From: Burkholderiales bacterium
GTDB lineage: Bacteria > Pseudomonadota > Gammaproteobacteria > Burkholderiales > SG8-39
NCBI GenBank assembly: GCA_014860355.1
Contig: JACZJV010000050.1
Coordinates: forward strand, 14,733-78,732
Direction: 5' to 3'
DNA length: 64,000 nucleotides
Both the position numbers and the translations under genes were made by a program. Below, piece after piece: positions 14,678 to 63,894 of the stretch (position 1 is the stretch's first letter; every line of letters starts with the position of its first letter). Under the pieces are notes generated by a model. That model saw nothing but the letters and a program-made list of their open reading frames with translations, did no database searches and was not told where the DNA came from.

Positions 14678-14701
14678 TGATACCTTCCCTTGATTGCGCG
14701 G

Positions 14702-27396: not shown

Positions 27397-27485
27397 CTCA
27401 CTTCTCCTCGCAGTCACTTGAACGGCAACGGTCAGGGTGCCGGCGCACGCGCCCGACTATCCCGGCAACGATACTCCTGCCCCCT

Positions 27486-27746: not shown

Positions 27747-27750
27747 GTCC

Positions 27751-30048: not shown

Positions 30049-30050
30049 GT

Positions 30051-31399: not shown

Positions 31400-31856
31400 G
31401 TCTTTCCCTGAAAGTTGTTCCACCCATTATCCAGTGTTGCGTGACTCCATGACAAATTTTCGAATGACCGTCCCCCGCCCGGCGGTTCGCGCCTGTGCGC
31501 CGTGGGCATGGTCACGCGCGGTTCCACTGTATTTTACCCAAACTATCCTGCCGGGTTCCCTGGAGGCGGCCATTTCCCGCAAGGCGCCTGCTTGCAGCCG
31601 CGCGCTGCCGGCCACACGAATGGCGTGTCGCCGCGTGCATCGCTGCATCTGATTGCGATGGCAACCGTGTCATTCGTCGGCATTTGTCGTTGCTCGGCCA
31701 GAAGCGGTCCGCGAAGATTATCTTCTATATAATGGCCCGGTCATCGCGCCGGGAAGCCCGGATAAACGAGCCGACAGTCCATTGATTTTCCTGTTACCGC
31801 GCAACAGCGAATATTCGACTTTGTTTTGCCGACTGATCCACCAAGAGGAGAACATC

Positions 31857-48619: not shown

Positions 48620-49435
48620 TCAACGCGCGTCGTTGAGCCTCCAGTCGTAATCGAGGAATTCGAGACCGTAGTCGCCGCGCCGGATCCGCGCCTGCGCCTG
48701 CGGCGTATCTGCCAGGCGCTCGGCGTATCTGGCGAATGTCGCCGTGAGCGAGGCGAAGCCGGCGTGGCCCTGCTCGAAGTCCTTGCCGTACCAGTCGAAC
48801 AGCTCGGATACGAGCAGGGTGTTGCGCTCGGCATCGTAGCGGTTGCGCGTACGGTCGGAGAGGAAGCGGCGCATGCCCTCTTCCAGTTGCGCATCCAGCC
48901 GCTCGGCGCTATAGGCCTCGTCGCGCAGCATCGGGCAGCCGATCGAGGCGCACACCAGCGCAGCGTGGATGCGCGGTTCGTCGAAGGCGCCGGGGGCGCG
49001 GATCATGCCCTGTTCGATGTCGTCGAGATGGCGTTCGCCGCCGAGCAGGACGAAGAACCTGCGTTTCCACGGCGACTGGAACACGCTGCCCAGATCATTG
49101 ATCGACGCGAGCTCCGGGTACCTGGAGAGGATCAGTTCGACGGTGTAGGCGTTATAGGCGTTGATCAGAAACGCGAGCCGCTGCTGCCTGGTCCAGCCGC
49201 GGTACTCCGCCATGCTTACGGCGGACAGGCCCTCCAGATAGGCCTTGAGCCGCTGGTGCTCGGCCTGTACGCCGGCATAGCGCAGCTGCGATGCATTGCC
49301 GCCCTGAATCAGCACCACATTGTCTTTCAGCAGCGCGGTCCACGCCGCGTGACTGTGATCGAAAGCGTGTGCCGTGGCGGCCGTGAGCATGAGGACGAGG
49401 GCGGCGAGCCAGCGCTTCGAGGCTGGCGCCTTCAT
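48620..49435 (-). CDS. secreted DUF547 domain protein
   Basis: ATG 49435 overlaps the upstream stop (ATGA). Signal peptide MKAPASKRWLAALVLMLTAATAHA. INAYNA and HAALVCASIGCP motifs of DUF547. Confidence 0.75.
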   Translation of the reverse strand: MKAPASKRWLAALVLMLTAATAHAFDHSHAAWTALLKDNVVLIQGGNASQLRYAGVQAEHQRLKAYLEGLSAVSMAEYRGWTRQQRLAFLINAYNAYTVELILSRYPELASINDLGSVFQSPWKRRFFVLLGGERHLDDIEQGMIRAPGAFDEPRIHAALVCASIGCPMLRDEAYSAERLDAQLEEGMRRFLSDRTRNRYDAERNTLLVSELFDWYGKDFEQGHAGFASLTATFARYAERLADTPQAQARIRRGDYGLEFLDYDWRLNDAR

Positions 49436-51576
49436 CCGCGCCGCCAGGCGTGGAAGCGCTCCACCCATTCGAGCAGCTTTTGCGGCGCGTGCGCCTTCTT
49501 CCACACGCCCGCCGCATACTTGTTCGCTTCCGCCATGGTCGGGTAGATATGGATGGTGCCGAGGATCTTGTTGAGCCCGATGCCGTGGCGCATCGCCAGC
49601 ACGTATTCGGCGATCAGCTCGCCGGCATGCTCGCCGACGATGGTGACGCCGAGTATGCGGTCCTTTCCGGGTACGGTGAGCACCTTGACGAAGCCGTGGG
49701 CCTCGCCATCGGCGATTGCGCGGTCCAGGTCGTCGATGCCGTAGATGGTCACTTCGTAGGGAATCGCGCGCTCCTTCGCCTCGGTCTCGTTCAGCCCCAC
49801 CCGCGCCGCTTCCGGGTCGACGAAAGTGGCCCAGGGTATGACTGAATAATCGGCGCGGAATTTCTTGAACGGATCGAACAGCGCATTGACCGCCGCGTAC
49901 CAGGCCTGATGCGCCGCCGTATGGGTGAACTGATACGGCCCGGCGACGTCGCCGGCGGCATAGATGTTGGGAAATCTGGTCTGCAGGAATTCGTTCGTCT
50001 CGACCGTGCGCTGCGCCGCGATGCCCAGCTCCTCCAGACCGTAGCCTTGCAGATTCGCGACCCGGCCGACGGCAACCAGCAGCGCGTCGAACGGGATGCG
50101 CACGTCCGCGCCCGCATGTTCGGCGACGAGGATCTTTTCGCCGCCTTCGACGACGAACTGCTTCGCCTTGTGATTGACCAGGACGGCTATGCCTTCGGCG
50201 CGAAAGTGCTGCGCCACCAGTTCGGACACCTCCGGATCCTCGCGGATGAGGATGCGCGGCGCCATTTCCACCTGCGTGACTTCGGCGCCGAGCCGGGCAA
50301 AGGTCTGGGTCAGCTCCGAGCCGATCGGGCCGCCGCCCAGCACCACCAGGCGCCGCGGCAACTGGCGCAGGTCCCACACGGTATCGGAGGTGAGATAGCC
50401 GACTTCCTCGATGCCCGGAATCGGCGGAACGAATGGGCGCGCGCCGGCGGCGATGACGATGGAACGCGTGCTCAGGCGCTCGCGCCCGCCGTCATTGCGC
50501 GTGATTTCCACCTCCCAGGGCGAGACGATTTTTGCCGTGCCTTCGATCACCTCCACGCCGAGTCCGGTATAGCGCTCGGCAGAGTCGTGGGGCGCTACGG
50601 TTTTGATGACGCGTTGCACGCGCTCCATCACCTCGGCAAAGTCAAACTCCGCCCGCGCGTCGCGGATGCCGAATTCAGGCGAACGGCGCATGTGGGCAAG
50701 CAGCCTGGCCGAGCGAATCAGGGCTTTTGAAGGCACGCAACCGGTATTCAGGCAGTCCCCGCCCAGTTTGTGCTTCTCCACCAGCGTGACCTTGGCCTTT
50801 ACCGCGGCAGCGATATACGAGGTGACCAGCCCTGCCGACCCGGCGCCGATCACGATCAGGTTGCGCTCGTAGCGCCGCGGTCTGTTCCAGCCGGCATAGA
50901 CCTTGTTCGTGCGCAGGCGCTCGGTGATTTTCTTGGCCAGCAGCGGAAAAATCCCCAGCAGCGCAAACGACGCCACAATCGCGGGCGAGAGGATGCCGGA
51001 CAAGGACTCGATTTTCGCCAGCTGCGTGCCGGCGTTCACATACACGATCGTGCCCAGCAGCATGCCGGCCTGGCTGACCCAGTAAAAGGTGCGCGTGCGG
51101 ATCGCCGTGAGCCCCATCACCAGGTTGATGACGAAGAAGGGGAACAGCGGCACCAGGCGCAGCGCGAGCAGATAGAAGCCGCCTTCGCGCTCGATGCCGG
51201 CATTGACGGCCTGCAAGCGCTCGCCGAATCGCTGTTGCACCCAGTCGCGCAGCAGGAAGCGCGAGGCGAGGAAGGCGAGCGTCGCGCCTGCCGTGGAAGC
51301 GAATGACACCAGGACCGTTCCCCAGAGCAGGCCGAAAACCGCACCGCCTGCAAGCGTCATTACCGCCGCGCCGGGCAGGGAAAGACCGGTGATCGCGACG
51401 TAGGCGAGGAAGTAGAACAGCGCCGCTTTTGCCGGCTGCGCCGCGCGCCAGGTTTCGATGGCAGCCTGCTGGCTCTTGAAAAAATCCAGACTCAGGTAGC
51501 GACCCAGATCGAAGAAGTAATAGCCGAGCGCGACGCCCAGCAGCACGGCAATCAGTACGAGGCGTTGACGGTTCAT
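49432..51576 (-). CDS. bifunctional TVP38/TMEM64 (DedA-related) membrane protein / class I pyridine nucleotide-disulfide oxidoreductase
   Basis: 714 aa. The N-terminal ~230 aa hold 5-6 TM segments of TVP38 type. The remainder has IGAGSAGL, the redox-active disulfide GGDCLNTGCVPSK, and the C-terminal HIYPTMAE His-Glu motif (mercuric/lipoamide reductase-like). Confidence 0.85.
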   Translation of the reverse strand: MNRQRLVLIAVLLGVALGYYFFDLGRYLSLDFFKSQQAAIETWRAAQPAKAALFYFLAYVAITGLSLPGAAVMTLAGGAVFGLLWGTVLVSFASTAGATLAFLASRFLLRDWVQQRFGERLQAVNAGIEREGGFYLLALRLVPLFPFFVINLVMGLTAIRTRTFYWVSQAGMLLGTIVYVNAGTQLAKIESLSGILSPAIVASFALLGIFPLLAKKITERLRTNKVYAGWNRPRRYERNLIVIGAGSAGLVTSYIAAAVKAKVTLVEKHKLGGDCLNTGCVPSKALIRSARLLAHMRRSPEFGIRDARAEFDFAEVMERVQRVIKTVAPHDSAERYTGLGVEVIEGTAKIVSPWEVEITRNDGGRERLSTRSIVIAAGARPFVPPIPGIEEVGYLTSDTVWDLRQLPRRLVVLGGGPIGSELTQTFARLGAEVTQVEMAPRILIREDPEVSELVAQHFRAEGIAVLVNHKAKQFVVEGGEKILVAEHAGADVRIPFDALLVAVGRVANLQGYGLEELGIAAQRTVETNEFLQTRFPNIYAAGDVAGPYQFTHTAAHQAWYAAVNALFDPFKKFRADYSVIPWATFVDPEAARVGLNETEAKERAIPYEVTIYGIDDLDRAIADGEAHGFVKVLTVPGKDRILGVTIVGEHAGELIAEYVLAMRHGIGLNKILGTIHIYPTMAEANKYAAGVWKKAHAPQKLLEWVERFHAWRRG

Positions 51577-51691: not shown

Positions 51692-52660
51692 TCACTTTGC
51701 GCGCAAATCGCTGTATTGGGACATTTCGGCGATCAATCGGGCGATGGCCGCGCGCTCGGCCGCCGGGTCGACTTCGTGGCGCCGCGCTATTACCGCGGCT
51801 TGCAGTTCGGCTAGCCAGTCCGGGTCGCGCTGGGCGCGCGCGAGTTGCGCCGCCAGCGCGGCCTCGTCCGCGTATGGGTAGTAGCCCGGATAGTCTGCGC
51901 CTAGCAGGCCGATATTGCCGGGGATGGCCGAGGCGATGACGGGCACGCCCGCGGCTATCGCTTCGGATACGACGTGCGCCCCGCCTTCCATGCGGCTCGA
52001 GATGACCATCGCGTGACTGCGCGCCAGCCAGCGCATCGCGCCTGCATGATCGAGTTCACCCAGCCAGCGATAGCGTGGCTCGGCGCGCATCAGCGCGCGT
52101 GCCTGCTGCCCCATTTCAGCCGTCATCGCCTGGCCCAGCTGCACCACGCGGATCGCGCTCTGCGGCAGCTGCGCCAGCGCGAGGGCGGCGCGAAACGGGT
52201 CTTTCTCCTCGCGCAAATGGCCGATCACGGTGACCAGAAAAAAGCTGCGCGGCGGAGTTTGCCGCCGCAGGGCGCGCTGCGACTGGAAAATTACGCTGGT
52301 TTTCGCGCGCTGCGCCGCGCCCAGTTCGTCCAGGCCCAGAGGCTGCAGCACCACCATGCGGTCAGCGAGGCCTAGCGACGCGCGCGCGTCGGCGTCGCTG
52401 CGTATGTCGCGGTACAAATCGGTGCCGGTGAGCACCAGGACCAAAGGACGCTGCGGGTGCGTCGACTTCCACGCCTTCATCGCCGCGTGGCTGCGGCGCG
52501 CATGCAGGGCAATGAGCAGCTCGCAATCGCGCCCGTCCCAATCGAGCGCAAGCTGCGTCACGTGCCCGAGCGCGCGCAAATGCCGCGCCCAGCGCAGCGC
52601 GGTATTGCGGTTGCCCTGGCGCGAACCCGGCGCGGCGGGCGTTACAATGAGTATGCGCAT
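51692..52660 (-). CDS. senB: GT-B glycosyltransferase of the selenosugar synthase (SenB) type
   Basis: 322 aa. The N-terminus MRILIVTPAAPGSRQGNRNTALRWARHL matches my memory of the selenium-neighbourhood glycosyltransferase family later named SenB. A GT1 C-terminal E-x7-E-like region is present (SRMEGGAHVVSEAIAAGVPV). Divergent from an EgtB-like gene. Confidence 0.75.
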   Translation of the reverse strand: MRILIVTPAAPGSRQGNRNTALRWARHLRALGHVTQLALDWDGRDCELLIALHARRSHAAMKAWKSTHPQRPLVLVLTGTDLYRDIRSDADARASLGLADRMVVLQPLGLDELGAAQRAKTSVIFQSQRALRRQTPPRSFFLVTVIGHLREEKDPFRAALALAQLPQSAIRVVQLGQAMTAEMGQQARALMRAEPRYRWLGELDHAGAMRWLARSHAMVISSRMEGGAHVVSEAIAAGVPVIASAIPGNIGLLGADYPGYYPYADEAALAAQLARAQRDPDWLAELQAAVIARRHEVDPAAERAAIARLIAEMSQYSDLRAK

Positions 52661-52736
52661 GGAGTGCCGCGCAGGCAGGGCTTGCCGGGCGGGAAGAAGA
52701 GGATCGGCTTATGCATGGCAGGTGTGGCAACAGGGC

Positions 52737-53939
52737 ATGAGAGACAATATAGCAGAGCCGTCGCCGCGCGCCGGCTGGCCCGATTTTTCGCTCTACCGGC
52801 CGCATCCGCCGGCAGCCCGACTGCGCGCCTGGCTGGTCGAGGCGCACGACCTGAGCTCGTTGCTGACGCAGTTCCTCGGCGACGAAACCATTGTCGTTCC
52901 GCTGCTGCCGATCGTCAATCCGCCGCTGTGGGAACTCGGTCACATCGCCTGGTTCCAGGAGTTCTGGCTGCATCGCGGCGGGGATTTTTCCCGGCCCTCG
53001 ATGCTGCGCGACGCGGATCGCTGGTATGACTCGGCGCGCGTCGCGCACGACACGCGTTGGTCCCTGGACCTGCCCGACGCACAGGCGACGCGGGGCTATG
53101 TCGAAGGAGTGTATAAGCGTACGCTGGCTTTGTTCGAGCGCGAATCACCGGGCGACGCGCGCGCGTACTTTACCCAGCTGGCGATCTTTCACCAGGACAT
53201 GCACAACGAGGCCTTCTGCCACATGTGGCAGACGCTCAGTTACCGGATGCCGCTAGCCTGGGCGCAAGCGGATGCAGCGGACGCAGCCGATCTGGAGCTT
53301 CCCGCAGGCAGGTTTGCGCTCGGGGCTAGCCGCGGCTCGGGCTTCGTATTCGACAACGAAAAATGGGCGCACGAGGTGGACTTGCGCGACTATGCGATTG
53401 CGCGCCGTGCGGTGAACAACGCCGAGTACCGCGCATTCGTCGAAGCGGGCGGCTACGCCCGGCGCGAATTATGGAGCGAGGCCGGTTGGGCCATGCGCGA
53501 GCGTTTGGCACTGGCGCATCCGCGCTACTGGAGGCGCGCTGCGCAGGGCTGGTCGGTGCGCCGCTTCGATCGCTGGGTGCCGCTGGCGGAGCACGAACCG
53601 GTGATGCACGTGAGTTGGTATGAGGCCGAGGCCTATTGCGCCTGGGCCGGCCGGCGCCTGCCGAGCGAGGCGGAATGGGAACGCGCCGCGGCAACCTGCC
53701 CCGATCGCTTTGACAGCGGCCGGGTCTGGGAATGGACTTCCAGCCGTTTCGCTCCCTATCCGGGCTTCACTGCCGACCCCTACAAGGAATACTCGGAGCC
53801 CTGGTTTGCCGACGAGCATCGCGTGTTGCGCGGCGGCAGCTTCGCCACGCCGCCGCGGCTGCTGCGCAGGACCTGGCGCAATTTCTACGCGCCCGCGCGA
53901 GCGGACATGTTCTGCGGATTTCGCAGCTGCGCGCTCTGA
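52737..53939 (+). CDS. senA: EgtB-like DinB_2 + FGE-sulfatase-domain C-S/C-Se bond-forming enzyme (selenoneine synthase SenA type)
   Basis: In-frame ATG 52737; the ORF part upstream overlaps senB. The iron triad is WELGHIAWF plus FHQDMHNE (H, HxxxHxE). The FGE-like C-terminal domain has RLPSEAEWE and RGGSF. Confidence 0.75.
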   Translation: MRDNIAEPSPRAGWPDFSLYRPHPPAARLRAWLVEAHDLSSLLTQFLGDETIVVPLLPIVNPPLWELGHIAWFQEFWLHRGGDFSRPSMLRDADRWYDSARVAHDTRWSLDLPDAQATRGYVEGVYKRTLALFERESPGDARAYFTQLAIFHQDMHNEAFCHMWQTLSYRMPLAWAQADAADAADLELPAGRFALGASRGSGFVFDNEKWAHEVDLRDYAIARRAVNNAEYRAFVEAGGYARRELWSEAGWAMRERLALAHPRYWRRAAQGWSVRRFDRWVPLAEHEPVMHVSWYEAEAYCAWAGRRLPSEAEWERAAATCPDRFDSGRVWEWTSSRFAPYPGFTADPYKEYSEPWFADEHRVLRGGSFATPPRLLRRTWRNFYAPARADMFCGFRSCAL

Positions 53940-53942
53940 AAT

Positions 53943-54029
53943 CCGGGCAGTGTAGCCGGCGCGCGTGCGCCGCATGCAAGGTATACTGCTTTCCCGCGGT
54001 GCAATTCGACCGCGTAGCTACACGGTCCG
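53943..54029 (+). other. structured senA-phnD intergenic leader (possible three-way junction)
   Basis: Outer helix 53943-53956 / 54017-54029 (12 pairs, one mismatch, one G-U) encloses hairpins 53957-53972 (6 bp, GCGU loop) and 53995-54014 (6 bp). Confidence 0.25.
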
Positions 54030-54078
54030 CCGCGGCGGCCCTTGGTACACCATCCAACATTCTCCGGAGTACGTCTAC

Positions 54079-54936
54079 ATGAGCGCTATCTTCCGCATTT
54101 TGGCCCTTGTGCTGTTCGGCTTGTCCTTTGCGCATGGCACTGCAGCCCAGGGCGTGCTCAGGGTATCCGCCATACCCGACGAAGCGCCGACCGAGCTGCA
54201 GCGCAAGTTCAAGCCGCTGGGCGAATATCTCGCGCAGGAAACCGGCATGAAGGTCGAGTTCACCCCGGTGAGCGACTACGCCGCAGTGGTCGAATCGCTG
54301 GCCACGAAGAAACTCGACCTCGCCTGGCTGGGGGGATTCACCTTCGTACAGACCAAGCTGCGCACCAAGGGCAGCGCCATACCCATCGTGCAGCGCGCCG
54401 AGGACGAAGTATTCACCAGCCGCTTCATCGTGCCCTCCGGCAGCAAGGCCAAGACCCTGGCCGATCTCAAGGGCAAGACCTTTGCCTTCGGTTCGCCCTC
54501 ATCGACCTCCGGACACCTGATGCCGCGCTATTTCCTGCTGCAGGCGGGCATCGATCCGGACAAGGATTTCAAGAACGTTGCGTTCTCGGGCGCGCACGAT
54601 GCGACGGTGGCATTCGTGGCCGGCGGCAAGGCCGAAGCCGGCGTGCTCAACGCCTCGGTCTGGGACAAGCTGGTGCAGGCAAAGAATCCCAACGCGCTGA
54701 AGGTCAGGGTGCTCGCGACCACGCCGCCCTATTTCGACTACAACTGGACCGTGCGCGGCGACCTGGACCCGGCCCTGGTGAAAAAGCTCACCGCCGCCTT
54801 TCTCAAGCTCGACCCGGCCAATCCGGCGGATAAGGCGATACTGGACCTGCAGCGCGCATCCAAGTTCATTCCGACCAAGGCGTCGAACTACGACGGCATC
54901 GAGAATGCCGCCAAATCGGCCGGCCTGATCAAATGA
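54079..54936 (+). CDS. PhnD-family ABC transporter periplasmic substrate-binding protein
   Basis: Internal ATG; signal peptide MSAIFRILALVLFGLSFAHGTAAQ. PhnD-type fold markers (LRVSAIPDE, FGSPSSTSGHLMPR). Confidence 0.8.
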   Translation: MSAIFRILALVLFGLSFAHGTAAQGVLRVSAIPDEAPTELQRKFKPLGEYLAQETGMKVEFTPVSDYAAVVESLATKKLDLAWLGGFTFVQTKLRTKGSAIPIVQRAEDEVFTSRFIVPSGSKAKTLADLKGKTFAFGSPSSTSGHLMPRYFLLQAGIDPDKDFKNVAFSGAHDATVAFVAGGKAEAGVLNASVWDKLVQAKNPNALKVRVLATTPPYFDYNWTVRGDLDPALVKKLTAAFLKLDPANPADKAILDLQRASKFIPTKASNYDGIENAAKSAGLIK

Positions 54937-54977
54937 CCCGACGCAGGTCTGCGCGCTGAATCGATGGAGCGCCTTGC

Positions 54978-55847
54978 GTGAGCTTTGAGCTCGACCGCAT
55001 AGGCTTGATACATTCCAACGGCCAGGCGCAGGGTCAACGGGCTTTGCGTGCGGTGTCGATCAGCGCCGCGCGCGGCGAGCGCCTGGCGATCATCGGCCCT
55101 TCCGGTGCGGGCAAGACTACGCTGCTGCGCATACTCGCCACTTCGATCCGTCCTACCGAGGGACGCGTCAGCGTGCTCGGTACGAATCCCTGGCAGCTTA
55201 GCAGCAGAGAGCTCAGGCGCCTGCGCAGCGGCGTCGGATTCATCCACCAGGCGCCGCCGATACCGCCGCGCCAGCGCGTGATTACCGCAGTGATCGCCGG
55301 GCGCCTGGGCCAGTGGCCCTGGTGGAAATCGGCGCTGTCGCTGATCTACCCGGCCGACATCGCCGGTCCGCGCGAGCAACTGGCGCGCCTGGATCTCGCC
55401 GACCGCCTGTTCGATCGCTGCGACCGGCTCTCCGGCGGGCAGCTGCAGCGCGTCGGAGTGGCGCGCGTGTTGTACCAGCGCCCGGATTTGCTGCTGGCGG
55501 ACGAACCGGTTTCGGCCATGGATCCTGCGCTCGCCGATCTCACCGTGGGCCAGCTGCACGCCGAAGCGCAAAGCCGCGGGGTCACGCTGGTCGCCAGTCT
55601 GCACGCGGTGGACATAGCGCTGCGCTGGTTCCCGCGCGTGATCGGACTCAAAGCGGGTGAGCTCGTATTCGACCTGCCGCCTGCGAAGGTGAGCGAGAGC
55701 GTGCTGCGCGACCTCTATGCCTCCGAAACCGGCGTGTTGCCCTCGCAGGACAATCAGCCGTTCCATGCGTCGTTCGAGGGATATGCCACGGACGACACCC
55801 CGGGCGGCAGCGGGCAGGTCCCGCTCGCGCCGCCGCGCGTGATTTGA
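54978..55847 (+). CDS. phnC: phosphonate-type ABC transporter ATP-binding protein
   Basis: GTG start. Walker A GPSGAGKTT, signature LSGGQLQRV, Walker B LLLADEP. Confidence 0.9.
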   Translation: MSFELDRIGLIHSNGQAQGQRALRAVSISAARGERLAIIGPSGAGKTTLLRILATSIRPTEGRVSVLGTNPWQLSSRELRRLRSGVGFIHQAPPIPPRQRVITAVIAGRLGQWPWWKSALSLIYPADIAGPREQLARLDLADRLFDRCDRLSGGQLQRVGVARVLYQRPDLLLADEPVSAMDPALADLTVGQLHAEAQSRGVTLVASLHAVDIALRWFPRVIGLKAGELVFDLPPAKVSESVLRDLYASETGVLPSQDNQPFHASFEGYATDDTPGGSGQVPLAPPRVI

Positions 55848-55859
55848 TTCCCTTGCGCC

Positions 55860-56696
55860 ATGTCATCTGGTTTGCAACCCCCGCAGCTGCGTGATCCGGA
55901 TGCACCCAGGCGGGCTGGCTGGGTGCTGCTTGCGCTGCTGGTGTTGTGGCCGCTCATGCAGATCGCCGAATTCCGTCCGTCCGACTTGTTCGACGCGCGC
56001 AACCTCGAGGTGATGGGCGGCTTCCTCGGGCAGTTCTTTCCGCCGAATATGAGCGGCGATTTTCTCGCCTACGCGCTCAAGGCGACCATAGAGACGCTGG
56101 CGATGGCGACCGCCGGCATCGCGCTCGCGATGTTGCTCGCGCTGCCGCTGGGCCTGGTGCTCACGCACAGCCTCTCGGTTTCGCGCATCGGCCCCGGGTC
56201 GGGTCGCGGCGCGGGCGAGGCGGTGCGTGCGGCCGCGCGCGCGACGCTGCTGATACTGCGCGGCATACCCGAACTGGTCTGGGCCCTGCTGCTGGTGCGC
56301 GCTTTCGGGCTGGGGCCGGCCGCTGGTGTGCTGGCCATCGCGCTCACCTACGGCGGTATGCTGGGGAAGGTCTATTCCGAGATACTGGAATCCGGCGATA
56401 CGCGCCCCGCGCGCGTGCTGCTCGAATCCGGCAGCGGCCGCCTGATGGCGTTCTTTTACGGACTGTTGCCGGGGGCCGGACAGGAGCTGGCTTCCTACAC
56501 CATCTATCGCTGGGAGTGCGCGGTGCGTGCTTCGGTGATCATGGGCTTTGTCGGCGCCGGCGGCCTCGGGCAGTTGATGGACCAGTCGATGAAAATGCTC
56601 AACGGCGGCGAGGTCTCGACCATCCTGATCATATTCCTGCTGCTGGTGCTGCTCGCCGACGCGCTCAGCGTTTTTCTGAGGAAGCTGCTCGCATGA
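55860..56696 (+). CDS. phnE: PhnE-type ABC transporter permease
   Basis: 278 aa, 6 TM segments, PhnE-like IPELVWALLLV segment. Confidence 0.85.
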   Translation: MSSGLQPPQLRDPDAPRRAGWVLLALLVLWPLMQIAEFRPSDLFDARNLEVMGGFLGQFFPPNMSGDFLAYALKATIETLAMATAGIALAMLLALPLGLVLTHSLSVSRIGPGSGRGAGEAVRAAARATLLILRGIPELVWALLLVRAFGLGPAAGVLAIALTYGGMLGKVYSEILESGDTRPARVLLESGSGRLMAFFYGLLPGAGQELASYTIYRWECAVRASVIMGFVGAGGLGQLMDQSMKMLNGGEVSTILIIFLLLVLLADALSVFLRKLLA

Positions 56697-56724
56697 GCAC
56701 GGCAGCTCGCCTCGAGCTGAGCCC

Positions 56725-57537
56725 GTGAGCACCGCGACTTTTGCCGAGCGGCGCGCGGCCATGGGCTTTTGCCTGCAGTGCTGGCTGACGCTGTTGCTGC
56801 TGGCCTTGCTCGTCTGGGCCAGCTTCGCCTATCTGGCGCTGGATTTGTCGCGCTTGTTCAGCCTGGAATCGGGCCGCGGCATGCTGCAGTTCATCCTGCG
56901 CTTTTTTCCGCCCGATACCAGCGCGCAGTTCCTGCGCAAGATCGCCGGGGCCACGCTCGAAACCCTGGCCATATCCGCGATCGGCACGCTGCTCGCCGCG
57001 GGCGCCGGACTGCTGCTGGCGCTGCCGGCGGCGGGTCGTCTGGGTCCGGTGTTCAAAGCGCTGACCCGCTTTCTCCTCAACGCCCTGCGCTCGGTGCCCG
57101 AACTCGTGTGGGCGGCATTGATGGTGCTGGCTGCAGGGCTGGGGCCTTTCGCCGGCACGCTCGCCCTGGCATTGCACACCTCGGGGGTGCTGGGGCGACT
57201 CTACGCGGAGAGCCTGGAAAATGCGCCGCCCGAGCCGGCACAGTCTCTGGTGGAAAGCGGTGCGCCGCCGGCGCTGGCCTTCGGCTACGCCACGCTGCCC
57301 TTGATCGCGCCGCAGCTGCTCTCCTACAGCCTGTACCGCTGGGAGATGAACATCCGCATGGCCACGGTGCTGGGCTTCGTCGGCGCCGGCGGCCTGGGGC
57401 AGATGCTCTACTACGAGCTGTCGCTGCTGCACGAAGCGCAGGCCTCGAGCGTCATCTTCGCCATGCTCGCATTGGTGGTGTTCGTCGACGCGGCGAGCGC
57501 CTGGGTGCGCCGCCGCCAGATGCGCGCGGGCGGATGA
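56725..57537 (+). CDS. phnE: PhnE-type ABC transporter permease (second)
   Basis: GTG 56725 (ATG 56761 is the alternative). Paralogous to the preceding permease (VPELVWAALMVL). Confidence 0.8.
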   Translation: MSTATFAERRAAMGFCLQCWLTLLLLALLVWASFAYLALDLSRLFSLESGRGMLQFILRFFPPDTSAQFLRKIAGATLETLAISAIGTLLAAGAGLLLALPAAGRLGPVFKALTRFLLNALRSVPELVWAALMVLAAGLGPFAGTLALALHTSGVLGRLYAESLENAPPEPAQSLVESGAPPALAFGYATLPLIAPQLLSYSLYRWEMNIRMATVLGFVGAGGLGQMLYYELSLLHEAQASSVIFAMLALVVFVDAASAWVRRRQMRAGG

Positions 57538-57555
57538 GGCCGCGGCGGTCCAGCG

Positions 57556-58776
57556 CTAATCCGCGAGGCGGGTCGGGATGCTGATTTCGGCGTGCAGCGT
57601 TCGATGTACCGGACACTTATTGGAGATCTCCAGCAGCTTGGCGCGCTGCTCCTCGCTCAAGGGGCCTTCCAGCCGTATCAGCCGCTCGATGCGGTCGACC
57701 TTGCCCTCCCTGGTTTCGCATTCCGCGCAATCTGCCGCGTGAATTTTGTCGTGTCTTAGCTCGACAGTGGCGCGCTCCAGCGGATAGCCCTTGAGATCGG
57801 CATACATGCGCATGGTCATCGAGGTGCACGCGCCGAGACCGGCGAGGAGCAGGTCGTAGGGCGAAAGTCCGCTGTCCAGGCCGCCGGCCGCGACCGGCTC
57901 GTCCGCGCGGATCACATGCTGCCCGACGAGCACGCGCTGACTGAATTTGCCCTCGCGGGTTTCCTGCACCACCACCTTGCCGGGCACCGCAGACGCAGCG
58001 GTGGCCGCCGTGGCGCCGAGGTAGCGCATCGCCCAGGATGCCAGGATGCTGCCGGTGTACAGCGCGTCCTCGCGCCGCGACAGCATGTGGTCGGCCGGAT
58101 CGAGGGAAACAAAACTCTTCGGGTGTTTCGCCGTGGTAAAGATCCGCGTTGCATTGTCGATGCCGACTACGCTGTCGCGCGGCGTATGCATGACCAGCAG
58201 CGCCTTGCCCATGTGCGCGAGTTTGTCGCCGAGCTTGCTGCCCGAGATGTCGTCCAGGAACTGCCTGCGTATGCGAAAGGGACGCTCGCCGATGTCGACT
58301 TCGGCCTCGCCTTCGCGCTCGATCGCGGACTTGTCCTTGATCAGCTGCAGCACATGCGCCGGATCGATAGGCGAGCCTATGGTCGCCACCGCGACCGCTT
58401 CGGGCACGCGCGCCGCTGCGGCGAGGACCGCGGTGCCGCCGAGGCTGTGGCCGACCAGGAGTGCGGGCGCGCTATAGTGCTGGCGCAGGTAGTCTGCTGC
58501 AGACACCAGGTCCTCCAGGTTCGAAGAAAAATTCGTGCTGGCAAAATCCCCGCCGCTGCCGCCCAGACCGGTGAAGTCGAAGCGCAGCACCGCGATGCCG
58601 CGCTCGGCCAGCGCCGCACTGACGTAAGTCGCGGCCTTGCTTTCCTTGGAGCAGGTAAAGCAATGCGCGAACAGGGCGTAGGCGATCGGCGCCGCTGACG
58701 GCGGCAGGTCGAGGCGCGCGGCGAGCAGGGCGCCTATGGCGCCGGGAAAGGAAAGCGTAAGCGACTGTATGGTCAT
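57556..58776 (-). CDS. bifunctional alpha/beta hydrolase / OsmC family protein
   Basis: 406 aa. The N-terminal half has the nucleophile elbow GHSLGG. The C-terminal ~140 aa has OsmC-type Cys pairs (GLGACTSMT ... NKCPVH). Confidence 0.85.
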   Translation of the reverse strand: MTIQSLTLSFPGAIGALLAARLDLPPSAAPIAYALFAHCFTCSKESKAATYVSAALAERGIAVLRFDFTGLGGSGGDFASTNFSSNLEDLVSAADYLRQHYSAPALLVGHSLGGTAVLAAAARVPEAVAVATIGSPIDPAHVLQLIKDKSAIEREGEAEVDIGERPFRIRRQFLDDISGSKLGDKLAHMGKALLVMHTPRDSVVGIDNATRIFTTAKHPKSFVSLDPADHMLSRREDALYTGSILASWAMRYLGATAATAASAVPGKVVVQETREGKFSQRVLVGQHVIRADEPVAAGGLDSGLSPYDLLLAGLGACTSMTMRMYADLKGYPLERATVELRHDKIHAADCAECETREGKVDRIERLIRLEGPLSEEQRAKLLEISNKCPVHRTLHAEISIPTRLAD

Positions 58777-58819: not shown

Positions 58820-59794
58820 CTAGATCGCCGCGTGGCACAGCGCGAACCAGTCGTTCGCGTCGGTCCACGCCTGGATGCGGTCAAAGCCGGCGCGCGCCAG
58901 CAGCGTCTTGAAATCAGTCAGCGCGTACTTGTAGCTGTTCTCCGTATGGATGCGCTGGCCCTGGCGAAATGCGCGTGTGCCGCCGGGCCAGCGCACGCTG
59001 AGGTCGTGCCTGGCCTCCAGGTGCATTTCGATGCGCGAGGCTGCGGTGTTGAACTGCGCCCGGTGGCGCCAGTCGCGCACGGCGAAATCGCTGCCGATCA
59101 GCGCATTCACGTTGTTGAGCAGGTTCAGGTTGAATGCCGCGGTGACCCCGAGCGCGTCGTCGTAGGCAGTCTGCAACAGGGTTTCGGACTTGAGCAGATC
59201 GACGCCGATCAGCAGGCCGCCGCCATGGGGGCCTGCGCACTGCGCCCGTATGCCGGCAAGGAAAGCGAGCGCCTGCTCCGGCGTGAAGTTGCCGATCGAT
59301 GAGCCGGGGTAGAAGAACAGGCGCTTGTCGCGGCTGACCGCATCGGGCAGGCGCAGGCCCGAGGAGAAATCGGCGCCGATGCCGAGCATTTCCATCTGCG
59401 GAAACTCACGCTGCAGCTGCGACATCGACTGCCGCAGATAATCCACGGAGATGTCCACTGCGACATACTGGCTCGGCCGCAGCGCAGCAAACAGGCTGCG
59501 CGCCTTTTCGCAATTGCCCGCGCCGAGGTCGATCAGCGCCGGCGCGGGGCCGGCGGCGCGCGCCACGCTGTCGCGGCAGGCTAGGAGCAGCGCTTTTTCC
59601 GTGCGCGTCGGATAGTATTCGGGCAGTTCGGTAATGGCATCGAACAGGCGCGAGCCCAGCGCGCCATAGAGGTGCTTGAACGACACCCATGGCGCGTCTG
59701 CCATCAGTCCCGCCACGATCGCGGCGGCCTCCGCGCCCGGCGCAAGCGCATCGGCGGGAAACGAAAAGAATGTCGGGCCGGATTGCAGCGTCAT
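58820..59794 (-). CDS. egtD: L-histidine N(alpha)-methyltransferase (hercynine synthase)
   Basis: 324 aa. FDAITELPEYYPTRTE, DLGAGN, YDDALGVTAAFNLNLL, RIEMHLEA and ENSYKY blocks match mycobacterial EgtD as I recall it. Confidence 0.9.
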   Translation of the reverse strand: MTLQSGPTFFSFPADALAPGAEAAAIVAGLMADAPWVSFKHLYGALGSRLFDAITELPEYYPTRTEKALLLACRDSVARAAGPAPALIDLGAGNCEKARSLFAALRPSQYVAVDISVDYLRQSMSQLQREFPQMEMLGIGADFSSGLRLPDAVSRDKRLFFYPGSSIGNFTPEQALAFLAGIRAQCAGPHGGGLLIGVDLLKSETLLQTAYDDALGVTAAFNLNLLNNVNALIGSDFAVRDWRHRAQFNTAASRIEMHLEARHDLSVRWPGGTRAFRQGQRIHTENSYKYALTDFKTLLARAGFDRIQAWTDANDWFALCHAAI

Positions 59795-59862: not shown

Positions 59863-60825
59863 TTAGCGGTCCCGCTTCAAAGAACTGCCGTCTCCGGCAT
59901 GGAACACCGCGGTGTGCGGGTTGAACGCGTACCAGGCGAACCAGTAGCCGACCACCGCCGGAAGCTGCCGCCCATCGGCGGCGTGGGCCGTGGCGCGCGC
60001 AGCCTGGCGGTCGAAGCGGATGGTCAGCGCAGTGTCACCTATCCGGTCGGACACCACGCCGGTCGTTTTCCCCAATTCGACGAAGGGATACGCCTTGGTC
60101 TGTTCGCCTATCCTGATACCGAGCACCCGTTCCTTGGGATGAAAGCCCGCAGAGCGGAACGCCACCGGGAACATGATGTCCTCGCTGCTCTCATATCCGG
60201 CGTAGGGGTCGCGCGCGTAAGGTCGCGTCTGCCCGGTATTGGTAGTCAGAACCCCGGTCGCCGGGTGTAAGCTGCGCCAGTCGGCCCAGCTGGTATGGGT
60301 CAGCGGCAGCAGCTTCAGGCGCCGACCTTTCTTCGGGCCGCTGACCGCCTGCGCCAGCAACTGCGACCACAGCGACTGTGTCTGCCGGTCGTACAGCAGC
60401 ACGTCGCTGTTGTAGAGCAGTCCGGAGACGCCGAAGCTGAGCACCTGACCATCGACGCTGGCATCGAAGGCCGCGCCGGTGCCGCACAGCGGACAGAAAG
60501 TGATCACCACCGCCTCCGCGCCGAAACGGTCGTTGACCACTTCGTGCCAGTTGAGTATGCGCACCGGATAGGCGCGCGCGATGCCCTTGCGCACCATGCC
60601 GAGTACGGCGTCATCGTCGCGCAGGAAAGTCGCAAGCCCTGCCTCGGTGAATTCGGGCTGGTCGATCGCGGGTATGCCGTCCCTGGGCGGTCCGCCTGCG
60701 TGGATCTCGTCGCTGGCGATCAATGATCCCTGCAGGTCGAAGCCGTTCATCTGCTGCGCGTAGGAGAGGACCGGCGCGAGGCCGGCGAGCAGGGCGAAGT
60801 ATGATACCAGGCGTCGAAATCTCAT
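59863..60825 (-). CDS. secreted DUF3179 domain protein
   Basis: Internal ATG (MRFRRLVSYFALLAGLAPVLSYAQQ signal peptide). PRDGIPAIDQP, FCPLCGTG and LLYNSDVLLYDRQT motifs of DUF3179. Confidence 0.8.
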   Translation of the reverse strand: MRFRRLVSYFALLAGLAPVLSYAQQMNGFDLQGSLIASDEIHAGGPPRDGIPAIDQPEFTEAGLATFLRDDDAVLGMVRKGIARAYPVRILNWHEVVNDRFGAEAVVITFCPLCGTGAAFDASVDGQVLSFGVSGLLYNSDVLLYDRQTQSLWSQLLAQAVSGPKKGRRLKLLPLTHTSWADWRSLHPATGVLTTNTGQTRPYARDPYAGYESSEDIMFPVAFRSAGFHPKERVLGIRIGEQTKAYPFVELGKTTGVVSDRIGDTALTIRFDRQAARATAHAADGRQLPAVVGYWFAWYAFNPHTAVFHAGDGSSLKRDR

Positions 60826-60937
60826 TCGTCCTCCAGACACATGTCGGGTGCGGATCTGTTTGTCGCAACCAGGCTAGCGTTTCTTACGCCGACTGAGGGT
60901 GCAGGTAATCCGGACCCAGCCGGTTGATGCAATGGCC

Positions 60938-61612
60938 CTAGGTAGGCGGCCGGCGCAACCGGTCGCGCACGAGTTTCACCGCGAACGGGATCAGGGTAAT
61001 GGCACCCAGTGCCAGCACCGATATCATGATCTGATCGGACTCACCGGTGGCCATCTCGCCGCCGAAATGGGCCAGCAGAAAGCTCGCCGGTACGATGCCG
61101 ATGAGCGTCGCGAGCGCGAAGCGCCAGAACGAGAGCACCGTCAGGCCCGCGGCATAGCTCACAATATCGAAGGATATGAACGGCAGGAGACGGCTGACCA
61201 GCACGATACCCATGAGCGTGTTTTGCGATCCGAGCAGGCCCAAGGACAATCGCTCGCCGAACCAGCGCCGCATGGTGTCCCCGCCGAGCCAGCGTGCCAG
61301 GCCGAAGGCGGTGATCGCGCCGATCTCCGCGCCCACGAGCACATAAAGCGTGCCCCAGACATGGCCATACGCGGCGCCGGCAGCCATGGCGATGGGTGCA
61401 CTCGGAATCGGGCTCACCATGATTGCCAGCACCATCAGGCCGATCACCAGCAGCGGGCCCCATGCCCCCAGGCGCGCAATGTGATCGTGCAGTTCGGCCC
61501 GGTTCAGGATGGTCGCCAAGGCGCCGGTTTCGTGCAACAGCCAGTAGGTCGCTGCCAGCAGCGCCAGCAGCGCGAGTACGGCGAGCAGTTTGAACCGCAG
61601 CGACTGCGTCAC
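60938..61612 (-). CDS. TVP38/TMEM64 family (DedA-related) membrane protein
   Basis: GTG 61612 overlaps the SelD-fusion stop (GTGA). 224 aa, 5-6 TM segments, MVSPIPSAPIAMAAGAAYG core. The rest of the 758-aa track ORF is antisense to the SelD fusion gene. Confidence 0.75.
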   Translation of the reverse strand: MTQSLRFKLLAVLALLALLAATYWLLHETGALATILNRAELHDHIARLGAWGPLLVIGLMVLAIMVSPIPSAPIAMAAGAAYGHVWGTLYVLVGAEIGAITAFGLARWLGGDTMRRWFGERLSLGLLGSQNTLMGIVLVSRLLPFISFDIVSYAAGLTVLSFWRFALATLIGIVPASFLLAHFGGEMATGESDQIMISVLALGAITLIPFAVKLVRDRLRRPPT

Positions 61613-63894
61613 GCGCCCAGCCTGAGGACGATAGGCGCCAGCGCTTCGCCCTGCGCGAGCACCCGGCCGATGGCCGCAGCATGCGTGTATCCGAGCGCGT
61701 GCAGGGCGCCGAGGCAGGCCTCGGCGCGCTCCCCGGGGACGCTGGCGAGCAGCCCACCTGCTGTCTGCGGGTCGAAGATCAGCGCATAGCGCGGATGGCT
61801 CAGCGCCTCCTGCTGGTTGCGCAGCGCGCGGCGCAGGCGCACGTTTGCCGGCTGCAGCGAACTCAGGATGCCGGCGGCGCTGGTTTGCTCCGCGCCTTCC
61901 AGTACGGGCAGCGACGCGAGGTCGAGTTCCGCGTCCACGCCCGAGGGGCGTGTCATTTCGACCAGGTGTCCGAGCAAACCGAAGCCGGTCAGATCGGTGC
62001 AGGCGGTCGCGCCGTGCTCGCGCAGACACTGCGCGCCCAGGCGGTTCGATTGGCACATCGAGGCGAGCGCCGCATCGATCCAGCGGCCACGGGCCGCGAG
62101 CAGGGCATGCGCCGCAAACAGCGTACCGGTGCCGATAGGCTTGGTCAGGATCAGGACGTCGCCGGCTCGCATGCCGCTCTTGCGCAGCACCGGCGCCAGG
62201 TTCTCGTCTATCAAGCCGTTCACGGCAAAGCCCAGCGCCAGTTCCTTGCCCTCGCCGGTGTGCCCGCCCACGAGCGCGCAGCCGGCGTCGTTGAGCACTT
62301 CGATCGCGCCCGACATCATCTGAAACAGCAGGTCCTCCTGCTTGGCCTCCAGGCCGGCGGGCACGGTGACGATCGCGGTGGCCGACTGCGCCTCGGCGCC
62401 CATCGCGTATATGTCGCCCAGGGCGTGATTGGCCGCGACCTTGCCGAAGATGTAGGGATCGTCGATGAAGGCGCGGAAGAAATCCACCGTGTGTACCATG
62501 GCCTTGCCCGGCGGCACGCGCACCACCGCCGCATCGTCGGGCGCATGCAGTCCGATGAGCACGTCGTCGCGCGCTACCGGGACTAGCGCGCCGAGCGCGC
62601 GCGAGAGCACGGTGGCGCCGACTTTCGCGCCGCAGCCGCCGCAGCGCATCGCCACTGCCGAGATCGCCTGCGCGGCCTCCTCCTGGTCGAGTTTGATCGG
62701 CGAGGGCGTCGCATGGGCGGGCCCGGCCTGCATTGCGGGAAACTGCTCGAATTTGTGCATGAAGCGGCGGTCGATCCAGTCCTTCCAGCGCCACACCCAG
62801 TCGCCGCGCAATGCCAGCGCAGCGCGCGAGGCCACGGCGTAGCGATCGCCGGTGCTGATCAGTGCCAGCCAGCGTGTTTGCGGGCGGTAGGGCCTCAATG
62901 GCCTGCCTTCCACAGCGCGGCGCAGATTCTCTGCGAGCGGCTTGCCCTGGCGCACGGCGAATACCCCGGCTTTCTCCAACGGCTGGTTCACCATGCCGGC
63001 GATATCGCCCGCGGCAAACACCTTTGGATCGCTCACGGTCTGCAGCGTGTCGCCGACCTGAATGAATCCATCCGCATCGAGTGCGAGGCCGGTTCCGGCG
63101 AGCCAGGGTGCGCCGCCGGCACGCGTGACCCAGACGATCTCGTCGGCATCCACCGACATGCCGGCCGTAGTCTGCAGGCGCGTCGCGGATACCTGGTTGA
63201 CCTCGGCCTTGCAATGCAGTTCGACACCGCGCTCGGCCAGCACGCGTTCGAATGTACGGCGCACCGAAGCATTGTGGGTTTTCAGGATCACCGGGCCGCG
63301 CGTCAGCAGGTGGAAGCTGAGTTCGTCCGGATTGCGCCCAGCCGCGCGCAATTCCTTGCGCAATCGGTATTGCATGGCCAGAGTCAACTCGACCCCGCCG
63401 GCGCCGCCGCCGACCACGGCGATGCGCGTGGCCCCGGCGTGCCGGCGCACGCGCTCGAGCAGCAGCAGCCAGCGCTGGTTGAATCCATTGATCGGTTTGA
63501 CCGGCACTGCGTGCTCGCTCGCACCCGCCACATCGGCCATTTGCGGCGTGGAGCCGATGTTGATCGACAGGTAGTCGTAGGGCACCGGCGGACGATTGCG
63601 GCAGAGGACTTTGCCCGCGTCGCGGTCCAGGCCCAGTGCTTCATCGTGAAAGTAGCGCGCGCCGGCAAAGCGAGCCAGCCTCGACAGATCGATGTGGACT
63701 TCGTCGTAGCTGTAGTGTCCGGCGATGTACCCCGGCAGCATGCCGGAGTAGGGTGTGTGGGTGTCGCGGCAGATGAGCGTCAGGCGGACCCCGGGCACGG
63801 GATGCATGCCGAAGCGCTTGAGCACGACTACATGGCTGTGGCCACCGCCGACCAGGACGATATCCCTGAGTACCGGCTGATCCGGCGATAGCAT
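61609..63894 (-). CDS. selD: bifunctional NDH-2-like FAD/NAD(P) oxidoreductase / selenide, water dikinase
   Basis: 761 aa. The N-terminal ~400 aa has VLVGGGHSHVV and VVGGGAGGVE dinucleotide folds. The C-terminal part has SelD motifs MRCGGCGAKVG (Cys form, no in-frame TGA), GDIYAMGA and LVGGHTGEG. Confidence 0.9.
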   Translation of the reverse strand: MLSPDQPVLRDIVLVGGGHSHVVVLKRFGMHPVPGVRLTLICRDTHTPYSGMLPGYIAGHYSYDEVHIDLSRLARFAGARYFHDEALGLDRDAGKVLCRNRPPVPYDYLSINIGSTPQMADVAGASEHAVPVKPINGFNQRWLLLLERVRRHAGATRIAVVGGGAGGVELTLAMQYRLRKELRAAGRNPDELSFHLLTRGPVILKTHNASVRRTFERVLAERGVELHCKAEVNQVSATRLQTTAGMSVDADEIVWVTRAGGAPWLAGTGLALDADGFIQVGDTLQTVSDPKVFAAGDIAGMVNQPLEKAGVFAVRQGKPLAENLRRAVEGRPLRPYRPQTRWLALISTGDRYAVASRAALALRGDWVWRWKDWIDRRFMHKFEQFPAMQAGPAHATPSPIKLDQEEAAQAISAVAMRCGGCGAKVGATVLSRALGALVPVARDDVLIGLHAPDDAAVVRVPPGKAMVHTVDFFRAFIDDPYIFGKVAANHALGDIYAMGAEAQSATAIVTVPAGLEAKQEDLLFQMMSGAIEVLNDAGCALVGGHTGEGKELALGFAVNGLIDENLAPVLRKSGMRAGDVLILTKPIGTGTLFAAHALLAARGRWIDAALASMCQSNRLGAQCLREHGATACTDLTGFGLLGHLVEMTRPSGVDAELDLASLPVLEGAEQTSAAGILSSLQPANVRLRRALRNQQEALSHPRYALIFDPQTAGGLLASVPGERAEACLGALHALGYTHAAAIGRVLAQGEALAPIVLRLGA

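Follow-up and report, generated by a model that had tools for sequence, protein, structure and literature searches.

A complete ATP-binding cassette (ABC) importer is encoded at positions 54079–57537 of the forward strand in a 64-kb stretch of Burkholderiales DNA (contig JACZJV010000050.1), which is referred to below as the window. It comprises a substrate-binding protein (SBP), an ATPase and two PhnE-type permeases; it begins 139 nt past the selenoneine synthase gene senA and sits within a full selenoneine island with senB, senA, egtD and a SelD fusion. On balance, this type I importer of the PhnD1/TIGR04553 clade appears to supply selenium to the surrounding selenoneine pathway, most likely as hydrogen selenite. 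The two parts of this reading can be graded separately: a selenium role of the transporter is likely, and, given such a role, selenite is very probably the substrate. An earlier note on this DNA, made from the sequence alone, had taken the operon for the selenium oxyanion importer of the island. A selenium role is the best reading, given the recurrent linkage of homologous loci to selenium genes and membership in TIGR04553; the binding pocket argues against selenate specifically.

The importer genes and their protein families

The operon consists of four open reading frames (ORFs), all on the forward strand, with consecutive gaps of 41, 12 and 28 nt. The Walker A motif (GPSGAGKT), the LSGGQ signature and the Walker B motif (LLLADEP) are all legible in the translation of the ATPase; a secreted SBP, this motif-complete ATPase and two BPD_transp_1 permease domains give the operon the make-up of a type I ABC importer. 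The earlier note had described a complete importer at this place and had pointed to a PhnD-related subfamily labelled as a putative selenate SBP; reading frames and profile scores bear out both statements.

NCBIfam TIGR04553 (‘putative selenate ABC transporter substrate-binding protein’) is a hypothetical equivalog with a cutoff of 250 bits, and the SBP clearly belongs to it: it scores 373.4 bits and covers model positions 1–266 of 266. Against the PhnD equivalog TIGR03431 it reaches 179.7 bits, under the cutoff of 261.1, and against Pfam Phosphonate-bd 244 bits. The ATPase remains below the cutoff of the PhnC model TIGR02315 (206 bits, cutoff 266), as does permease 1 for the PhnE model TIGR01097 (194 bits, cutoff 216.7); permease 2 exceeds the latter cutoff with 236.7 bits. 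The naming of near-identical proteins at NCBI follows the TIGR04553 label, and JGI uses ‘phosphonate transport system substrate-binding protein’. The closest protein relatives are found in Burkholderiales metagenome-assembled genomes (MAGs). The window sequence itself occurs in DNA runs only, from a bioreactor metagenome.

Linkage to selenium genes in homologous loci

More than 583 relatives were obtained by scanning a single genome for each GTDB species, and the best 80 were analysed. Their SBPs are 72–87% identical, and all come from Burkholderiales/Rhodocyclales-like genomes. Variovorax paradoxus, a selenoneine producer, has close homologues. Neighbouring genes were counted with tblastn and by unbiased neighbour clustering, and their identities were confirmed with NCBIfam; the counts of selD, sen genes and mnmH were taken from tblastn because our own ORF caller, which started each ORF at its first start codon and filtered by composition, fragmented some families.

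At least one of selD, senA/senB, mnmH and selA/selB lies beside the transporter in 56 of the 80 loci (38 of 53 where both flanks were long enough). The gene selD is present in 51 of the 80 loci, mostly about 1–4 kb from the SBP gene and about 6.6 kb from it in one; senA was found in 27 and senB in 26. About 20 loci carry mnmH, the gene of tRNA 2-selenouridine synthase, typically directly after the second permease gene, and about 10 carry selA and selB, often with genes of selenocysteine (Sec)-type formate dehydrogenase. A PhnC-like ATPase and PhnE-like permeases accompany the SBP in 74–76 of the 80 loci.

The selenium linkage is carried by at least five distinct gene orders. The gene selD can be divergent from the SBP gene, with mnmH downstream; selD–senB can be divergent from senA–SBP; a SelD fusion can stand immediately upstream of the SBP gene and co-directional with it; selD–SBP can be followed by senB and egtD; and the fifth order is that of the window. 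Such variety speaks for selection and against inherited synteny, and linkage at this frequency in several orders means that a selenium role is well supported by context. A linkage that is kept through rearrangement and that involves three traits (selenocysteine, selenouridine and selenoneine) would be difficult to account for if the transporter had no part in selenium metabolism.

Relatives with measured ligands and the binding pocket

The best match among solved structures is PhnD1 of Synechococcus MITS9220 (PDB 7S6G; E 1.7e-56, 44% identity), followed by PhnD1 of Prochlorococcus MIT9301 (PDB 5LQ5/5LQ8; E 3.5e-49, 39% identity). PhnD1 and PtxB chains were rescored on TIGR04553, the PhnD1 sequences having been rebuilt from printed alignments. 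Both PhnD1 proteins pass the cutoff, with 338.3 bits (7S6G) and 301.6 bits (5LQ5), and PtxB of Pseudomonas stutzeri fails it with 166 bits. The picocyanobacterial PhnD1 proteins are the only biochemically studied proteins that were found to pass.

Dissociation constants of PhnD1 are 0.05–4 µM for phosphite, 7–180 µM for phosphate and 17–109 µM for methylphosphonate; the preference for three-oxygen phosphite over tetrahedral phosphate is 10- to 1000-fold. 2-Aminoethylphosphonate (2-AEP) is not bound by the Prochlorococcus protein, and the Synechococcus protein has no measurable affinity for hypophosphite. Three oxygens in a trigonal arrangement are required. In Prochlorococcus PhnD1, the mono-anion HPO3H− was inferred as the bound form, with D205 recruited to complete the hydrogen-bond network of the ligand; the equivalent Asp of Synechococcus PhnD1, D203, has been described as an essential hydrogen-bond acceptor. 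A ligand screen that included sulfur sources gave stabilisation by phosphorus compounds only, and for the phosphate-bound crystal, sulfate was dismissed as pocket occupant on the basis of anomalous X-ray data. The authors of the PhnD1 work considered the phosphite affinity possibly fortuitous and the physiological role unknown. The host strains are unable to use phosphite for growth, and phosphorus does not regulate the expression of the transporter. PhnD1C1E1 is present in 97 of the 97 picocyanobacterial genomes of the Cyanorak database, and picocyanobacteria carry an oxidoreductase-extended SelD and ybbB. Selenium is not mentioned in the two structural papers on PhnD1 or in the accessible supplement.

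The pocket of the window SBP is formed by I32, D34, Y67, T88, F112, S141–S144, H173, N191, D220 and Y221, and all of these residues are identical in PhnD1. The PhnD1 contacts are D11, Y44, T65, S123–S126, H156, N174, D203 and Y204 in the numbering of 7S6G, and F90 and D205 in that of 5LQ5. The checked positions, a set that leaves out N191, are invariant across the 80 homologues except for one S141A substitution; F112, D220 and Y221 are kept in the window SBP and in all 80. F112 and D220 form the pair that separates PhnD1 from PtxB, where Tyr and Gln are found.

Hydrogen selenite as the probable ligand and a proposed route

The predominant form of selenite at neutral pH is HSeO3−, a mono-anion with three oxygens and one hydroxyl group, in which a lone pair takes the position of the P–H of phosphite. 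Selenate, like sulfate, carries no proton at physiological pH, and the rejection of fully ionised sulfate by a carboxylate acceptor is the textbook discrimination between phosphate and sulfate in binding proteins. The pocket of the window SBP, with three oxygen sites and an Asp acceptor, argues for a better fit of hydrogen selenite than of selenate. Selenate is disfavoured as well because sulfur sources gave no stabilisation of PhnD1 and sulfate was dismissed from its pocket. In yeast, selenite enters through phosphate transporters, and according to a 2024 review a specific selenite transporter is still to be identified in bacteria.

The proposed route begins in the periplasm, where the SBP would capture a small three-oxygen oxyanion, most likely HSeO3− and not selenate; in shape and charge, HSeO3− would resemble the mono-anionic H-phosphite bound by PhnD1. 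The loaded SBP would dock on the heterodimer of PhnE-type permeases, and the ATPase would drive import, which is the flux direction expected under physiological conditions. Cytoplasmic selenite would then be reduced to selenide, for which the FAD domain fused to SelD, the disulfide reductase fused to DedA, or thiols are candidates. SelD would convert selenide to selenophosphate and SenB would make the selenosugar, which SenA would join to EgtD-made hercynine to yield selenoneine. Co-expression of the importer with the sen genes would be expected on this route.

The surrounding selenoneine island

The importer is flanked by senA on one side and by an egtD–DUF3179–dedA–selD operon on the other (Table 1). 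Transcription of the latter runs on the reverse strand in the order SelD fusion, DedA, DUF3179, egtD and hydrolase–OsmC fusion, tail-to-tail with the transporter; the hydrolase–OsmC gene is convergent with the last permease gene across a gap of 18 nt. The GTG start of the dedA gene in this operon overlaps the stop codon of the SelD fusion. The SelD fusion protein scores 528 bits against TIGR03169 (cutoff 310) and 298 bits against TIGR00476 selD (cutoff 125).

Table 1. Features of the importer and the adjoining selenoneine island, with window positions
Feature	Position	Strand	Details
DUF547 protein	48620–49435	−	Pfam DUF547; start overlaps the stop of the DedA–oxidoreductase gene
DedA/VTT fusion with MerA/glutathione-reductase-like flavin (FAD) disulfide oxidoreductase	49432–51576	−	Pfam VTT_dom, Pyr_redox_2, Pyr_redox_dim
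senB, selenosugar synthase	51692–52660	−	Divergent from senA; TIGR04348 403 bits, cutoff 300
senA, selenoneine synthase	52737–53939	+	400 aa; NF041186 503.7 bits, cutoff 420
senA–SBP intergenic region	53940–54078	+	Exactly 139 nt
SBP, periplasmic, PhnD1/TIGR04553 clade	54079–54936	+	ATG start, 285 aa, N-terminal signal peptide
ABC ATPase, PhnC-like	54978–55847	+	GTG start, 289 aa, Pfam ABC_tran
Permease 1, PhnE-type	55860–56696	+	278 aa, Pfam BPD_transp_1
Permease 2, PhnE-type	56725–57537	+	270 aa, Pfam BPD_transp_1
Alpha/beta-hydrolase and OsmC-like fusion	57556–58776	−	Pfam OsmC, Hydrolase_4; OsmC_like_Se 51 bits, below cutoff
egtD, histidine N-alpha-methyltransferase (hercynine maker)	58820–59794	−	TIGR03438 362 bits, cutoff 290.9
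DUF3179 protein	59863–60840	−	Pfam PF11376, 306 bits
DedA/VTT-family membrane protein	60938–61612	−	Pfam VTT_dom
SelD (senC role) with N-terminal pyridine-nucleotide-disulfide oxidoreductase domain	61609–63894	−	761 aa

A close relative of the window SelD is located directly upstream of the SBP gene, and co-directional with it, in two homologous loci (L044 and L054). The oxidoreductase domain on this SelD was detected in L044 only; L054 has too little upstream sequence. The SelD proteins of Prochlorococcus and Synechococcus have an N-terminal extension resembling NADH dehydrogenases, an architecture similar to that of the window SelD. Picocyanobacteria with a similar SelD extension are also the source of PhnD1, the closest characterised relative of the window SBP.

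The island contains two DedA/VTT-family genes, one in the selD operon and one on the far side of senB. The product of the latter, the DedA–oxidoreductase fusion, scores 502 bits against NF004991, which is below the cutoff, and is a candidate for the reductive step or for an alternative selenium route. At the far end of the window, a triple-rhodanese protein is encoded at 473–2299 (+). Enzymes that transfer selenium and sulfur, MnmH for example, can also contain rhodanese domains.

Phosphorus-related genes in the window

The absence of phosphonate catabolic genes from the window, which the earlier note had remarked on, holds in Pfam and NCBIfam scans of about 55 ORFs across the 64 kb, picked by third-position GC content (a composition heuristic). 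None of these ORFs belongs to the carbon–phosphorus (C–P) lyase, phosphonatase, PhnW/X/A, PtxD or HtxA families. A D-2-hydroxyacid dehydrogenase at 13616–14701, a generic member of the superfamily of PtxD, was considered as a PtxD candidate and rejected; it matches PGDH and glyoxylate reductase models best, in each case under the cutoff, and the gene lies about 40 kb away.

Two small ORFs, neither of them connected with the transporter by its position, look like the alpha subunit of sulfopyruvate/phosphonopyruvate decarboxylase. The one at 9903–10592 (+) scores 130 bits against TIGR03845, below the cutoff of 148. The other, at 26854–27456 (−), was judged from its sequence only; it is located just downstream of a 109-aa ORF (27486–27812), which follows a molybdenum hydroxylase operon (27751–31426).

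Regulatory sequences and a structured leader RNA

The gap between senA and the SBP gene contains a -10-like TATACT (53982–53987), which is common to the closest homologous locus, L001, and is only a hint of a promoter belonging to the importer itself. GGAG precedes the ATG of the SBP gene by 10 nt. A promoter and terminator scan of 52500–57900 gave no site in the gap, and terminator-like matches were at the level of shuffled sequences. Rfam models at the gathering threshold gave nothing in the whole window, neither a riboswitch nor a tRNA, tRNA-Sec included. The region preceding the SBP gene was searched for a Pho box (CTGTCAT-N4-CTGTCAT), both in the window and in 77 homologous loci; the best matches, 7–10 of 14 positions, equal those of shuffles, a weak negative because the consensus is that of Escherichia coli.

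Two intergenic motifs are common to the loci of Variovorax and relatives (L004–L017, L022, L031 and L032), about 60–110 nt upstream of the SBP start. The first, CGATTATCGAAG, contains the inverted repeat CGAT-N-ATCG; the second, TTTCTACAATC, is -10-like. In these loci selA–selB–selD is divergent from SBP–ATPase–permease–permease–mnmH, and the motifs may be a putative regulator site common to selD and the transporter.

Across all loci, comparison of the 130-nt stretches that precede the SBP start revealed a conserved structured 5′ leader of about 96 nt, directly upstream of the SBP gene and only in operons without adjacent selenium genes. It occurs in Dechloromonas/Azonexus, Comamonas, Delftia, Acidovorax, Polaromonas and other genera, at L053:9823–9918, L067:9802–9902, L057:9851–9952, L060:9811–9913 and 11 further genome loci, and also at 53 metagenome loci (for example, L117:6279–6374). 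The leader begins just past a -10-like TAnAAT box and contains three stems: P1 (GCGGU-N6-ACCGC), P2, a hairpin of variable sequence that frequently has a C(UUCG)G cap, and P3, a stem of 8–9 bp whose loop contains an invariant UCCG. This UCCG is complementary to the Shine–Dalgarno CGGA 25–30 nt downstream, and their pairing could form a pseudoknot that sequesters the ribosome-binding site; the proposed pseudoknot is invariant, so covariation says nothing about it. In most of the unlinked loci, leader-bearing ones included, one ORF of about 515–580 aa encodes both PhnE permeases as a fusion (L051, L053, L057, L059–L062, L065, L067, L073, L076, L077 and L079, at about 11.6–13.3 kb). In the window and in the loci linked to sen or selD genes they are two separate genes.

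A covariance model built from the 15 genome copies retrieved no additional copy from 1.4 Mb of loci, nor any from the window. A strict DNA pattern matched 78 metagenome stretches, of which 53 fit the model at 67 bits or more; 22 others without model fit or nearby SBP, and three with a weak fit (29–31 bits) and no SBP, were treated as chance or unrelated matches. All 68 leader copies (68/68) lie 13–110 nt upstream of an SBP homologue, in the same orientation. Among 55 distinct sequences, closely related and in an alignment fitted to the model, 96.6% of the cells pair and nine of the 22 pairs show compensatory changes, across P1, P2 and P3; the covariation score was reached by none of 500 shuffles. 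Rfam 15 gave no match at the gathering threshold over 117 kb of loci, and two leaders gave noise only up to E 10. Single-sequence folds recover P1–P3, and since their energy z-scores (0.02, −2.84 and −0.30) are unremarkable, support for the leader comes from conservation and covariation. The leader looks like a previously undescribed cis-regulatory RNA dedicated to this transporter, possibly a riboswitch, whose ligand could reveal the cargo of the transporter.

Weighing of alternative substrates

Several points weigh against hydrogen selenite as the substrate, and some against any selenium role. Phosphite, phosphate and methylphosphonate are the sole ligands measured for proteins above the TIGR04553 cutoff, and the first-shell pocket is indistinguishable from that of PhnD1, so sequence alone yields no selenium-specific signature. 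By proxy, through PhnD1, the window SBP may have the high-affinity phosphite binding that the earlier note had named as one half of what would speak against its proposal. No biochemical or genetic test of a TIGR04553-family member with selenium oxyanions was found in the searchable literature. Se–O bonds are longer than P–O bonds, so the fit of the pocket is not assured. The linkage counts are not independent, as all 80 loci come from related Burkholderiales/Rhodocyclales-like genomes, and 24 of the 80 loci have no nearby selenium gene, 15 of them with adequate flanks. The neighbours of these 15 are mixed (sensor kinase and sigma-54 activator, lactate permease, peptidase, DnaJ, TonB receptor and others). 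In one unlinked locus, L073 from a Polaromonas MAG, an alkaline phosphatase gene (7747–9792, +) stands directly upstream of the leader and the SBP gene, co-directional with both; it is the sole phosphorus-related neighbour among 10 annotated flanking ORFs of unlinked loci. The two DedA genes of the island are alternative or additional candidates for selenite uptake, because DedA has been implicated in this process in Ralstonia metallidurans (2024 review).

Some of these points would suit a phosphorus importer resembling picocyanobacterial PhnD1CE, with medium affinity for phosphite and/or phosphate, for which the selenium neighbours would be irrelevant to the substrate. The closest characterised relatives, 44% and 39% identical, bind phosphorus compounds and share all the ligand-contacting residues, JGI names the relatives as phosphonate transport SBPs, and L073 has its alkaline phosphatase. 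Such an importer nevertheless appears unlikely: there is no ptxD, phnY/Z or C–P lyase gene among the scanned window ORFs and no Pho box of the E. coli consensus upstream, the selenium linkage in several gene orders is far beyond chance expectation, and for PhnD1 itself the phosphite affinity may be fortuitous, in hosts that neither grow on phosphite nor regulate expression by phosphorus. A promiscuous importer of XO3-type oxyanions (H-phosphite, hydrogen selenite and some phosphate), whose role is set by location and regulation, would supply selenium at the loci linked to sen or selD genes and possibly have another role at the leader-bearing loci. The same first-shell pocket in selenium-linked loci, unlinked loci and cyanobacterial proteins would fit this, as would the two mutually exclusive regulatory classes, one with adjacent selenium genes and one with the structured leader. 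The SBPs of both classes are, however, 72–87% identical, which suggests one function; promiscuity of this kind is inseparable from dedicated selenite import on sequence evidence, and we give it a low probability. Import of selenate (SeO4 2−) has behind it the product name of TIGR04553 and the ‘putative selenate transporter’ of Kayrouz & Seyedsayamdost (bioRxiv 10.1101/2022.04.13.486033), but the former belongs to a hypothetical equivalog, and no experiment behind it was found in the searchable literature. The pocket keeps D220, whose equivalent in Synechococcus PhnD1 has been described as an essential hydrogen-bond acceptor, and the bound form inferred for Prochlorococcus PhnD1 is a mono-anion; the PhnD1 preference for three-oxygen phosphite over a tetrahedral anion and its indifference to sulfur sources and sulfate point the same way, and no recognisable selenate reductase is encoded in the window. 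Selenate is thus improbable, and the least favoured of these readings.

Hydrogen selenite as the substrate of the window importer leads to a wider proposal, which is tentative and somewhat doubtful: the whole PhnD1/TIGR04553 clade could be a dedicated high-affinity bacterial selenite importer, and the phosphite affinity of PhnD1 could reflect mimicry of hydrogen selenite. Picocyanobacterial PhnD1CE may be a selenite importer that supplies the oxidoreductase-fused SelD and YbbB, because it is universal in Cyanorak and not regulated by phosphorus, and its hosts do not grow on phosphite and carry SelD and ybbB. In a subset of Betaproteobacteria, the operon of this clade is preceded by the structured leader RNA described above, which may be a riboswitch.

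Significance

The TIGR04553 family is the obvious candidate for a specific bacterial selenite transporter, and purified and crystallised SBPs from it already exist. Two points are worth taking forward: the studied proteins that pass the cutoff bind phosphite with an identical pocket, and the selenate label, a hypothesis from genome context, is probably wrong, so that the product name should read selenite. If selenite import is confirmed, the selenoneine pathway would be complete from uptake to product, which would be useful for engineering the production of organic selenium; the database name would be corrected from selenate to selenite, and the abundant marine PhnD1 transporter would move from the phosphorus cycle to the ocean selenium cycle. 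If it is disproved, a widely propagated NCBI product name would be shown to be wrong.

Comparison with known systems

The association of such a transporter with selenium genes has already been published and is already a database annotation, and as a finding it is ordinary. Kayrouz & Seyedsayamdost (2022, bioRxiv 10.1101/2022.04.13.486033) reported a ‘putative selenate transporter’ gene close to many of 827 sen clusters and used its proximity as supporting evidence, and Peng et al. (2016) listed an ABC ATPase among the genes recurrently near orphan selD. The window importer agrees with the published arrangement of the TIGR04553/sen-cluster transporter in its SBP (373 bits), its PhnC/PhnE-like partners and its position adjoining senA, senB, SelD and egtD. 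It differs in that SelD is fused to an oxidoreductase and encoded across the transporter, and in the presence of two DedA genes; none of these differences is essential.

Among proteins with measured ligands, PhnD1 is the most similar: it passes TIGR04553 as the window SBP does, and the window SBP matches its contacts, including the equivalents of F90 and D205 (F112 and D220) and the Tyr cap. The two differ in context, since the PhnD1 gene adjoins tesA, encoding a lysophospholipase-like esterase, whereas the window importer adjoins sen genes, selD and egtD; no member of a tesA-type family was found among the window neighbours in Pfam scans. PtxB of PtxABC (P. stutzeri 5O2J; Trichodesmium 5JVB) shares the fold, the three-oxygen site and the Tyr cap (32% identity, E 9.6e-34), but the positions of F112 and D220 of the window SBP are occupied in PtxB by Tyr (Y100 in Te_PtxB) and by a Gln that precedes the Tyr cap, and the ptxD of PtxABCD was not found in the window. 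PhnD of E. coli PhnCDE, which takes up alkylphosphonates and 2-AEP, belongs to the same superfamily, with the same SBP–ATPase–PhnE operon logic; the window SBP is, however, distant from it (E 2e-15 to 3P7I), remains below the PhnD equivalog cutoff, and is accompanied by no phnG–M found in the window.

AioX (6ESV) and ArrX (6X6B) are PhnD-like periplasmic proteins of the periplasmic-binding-protein (PBP) fold, matching the window SBP with E of about 2e-17, but their sequences are distant and their pocket residues differ. AioX is an arsenite binder, and AioX and ArrX act as sensor partners, not as transporter SBPs. ArrX has been described as an arsenate-binding protein. The two proteins show a scaffold adapted to a metalloid oxyanion. 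The known routes of selenium oxyanion entry are the sulfate ABC transporter of E. coli, for selenate and selenite, Pho84/87/90/91 of yeast, and DedA of Ralstonia metallidurans. They are a functional precedent, with phosphate carriers taking up selenite in yeast, and dedA genes are also present in the island; unlike these non-specific routes, which belong to other nutrients, the window importer would be a dedicated system.

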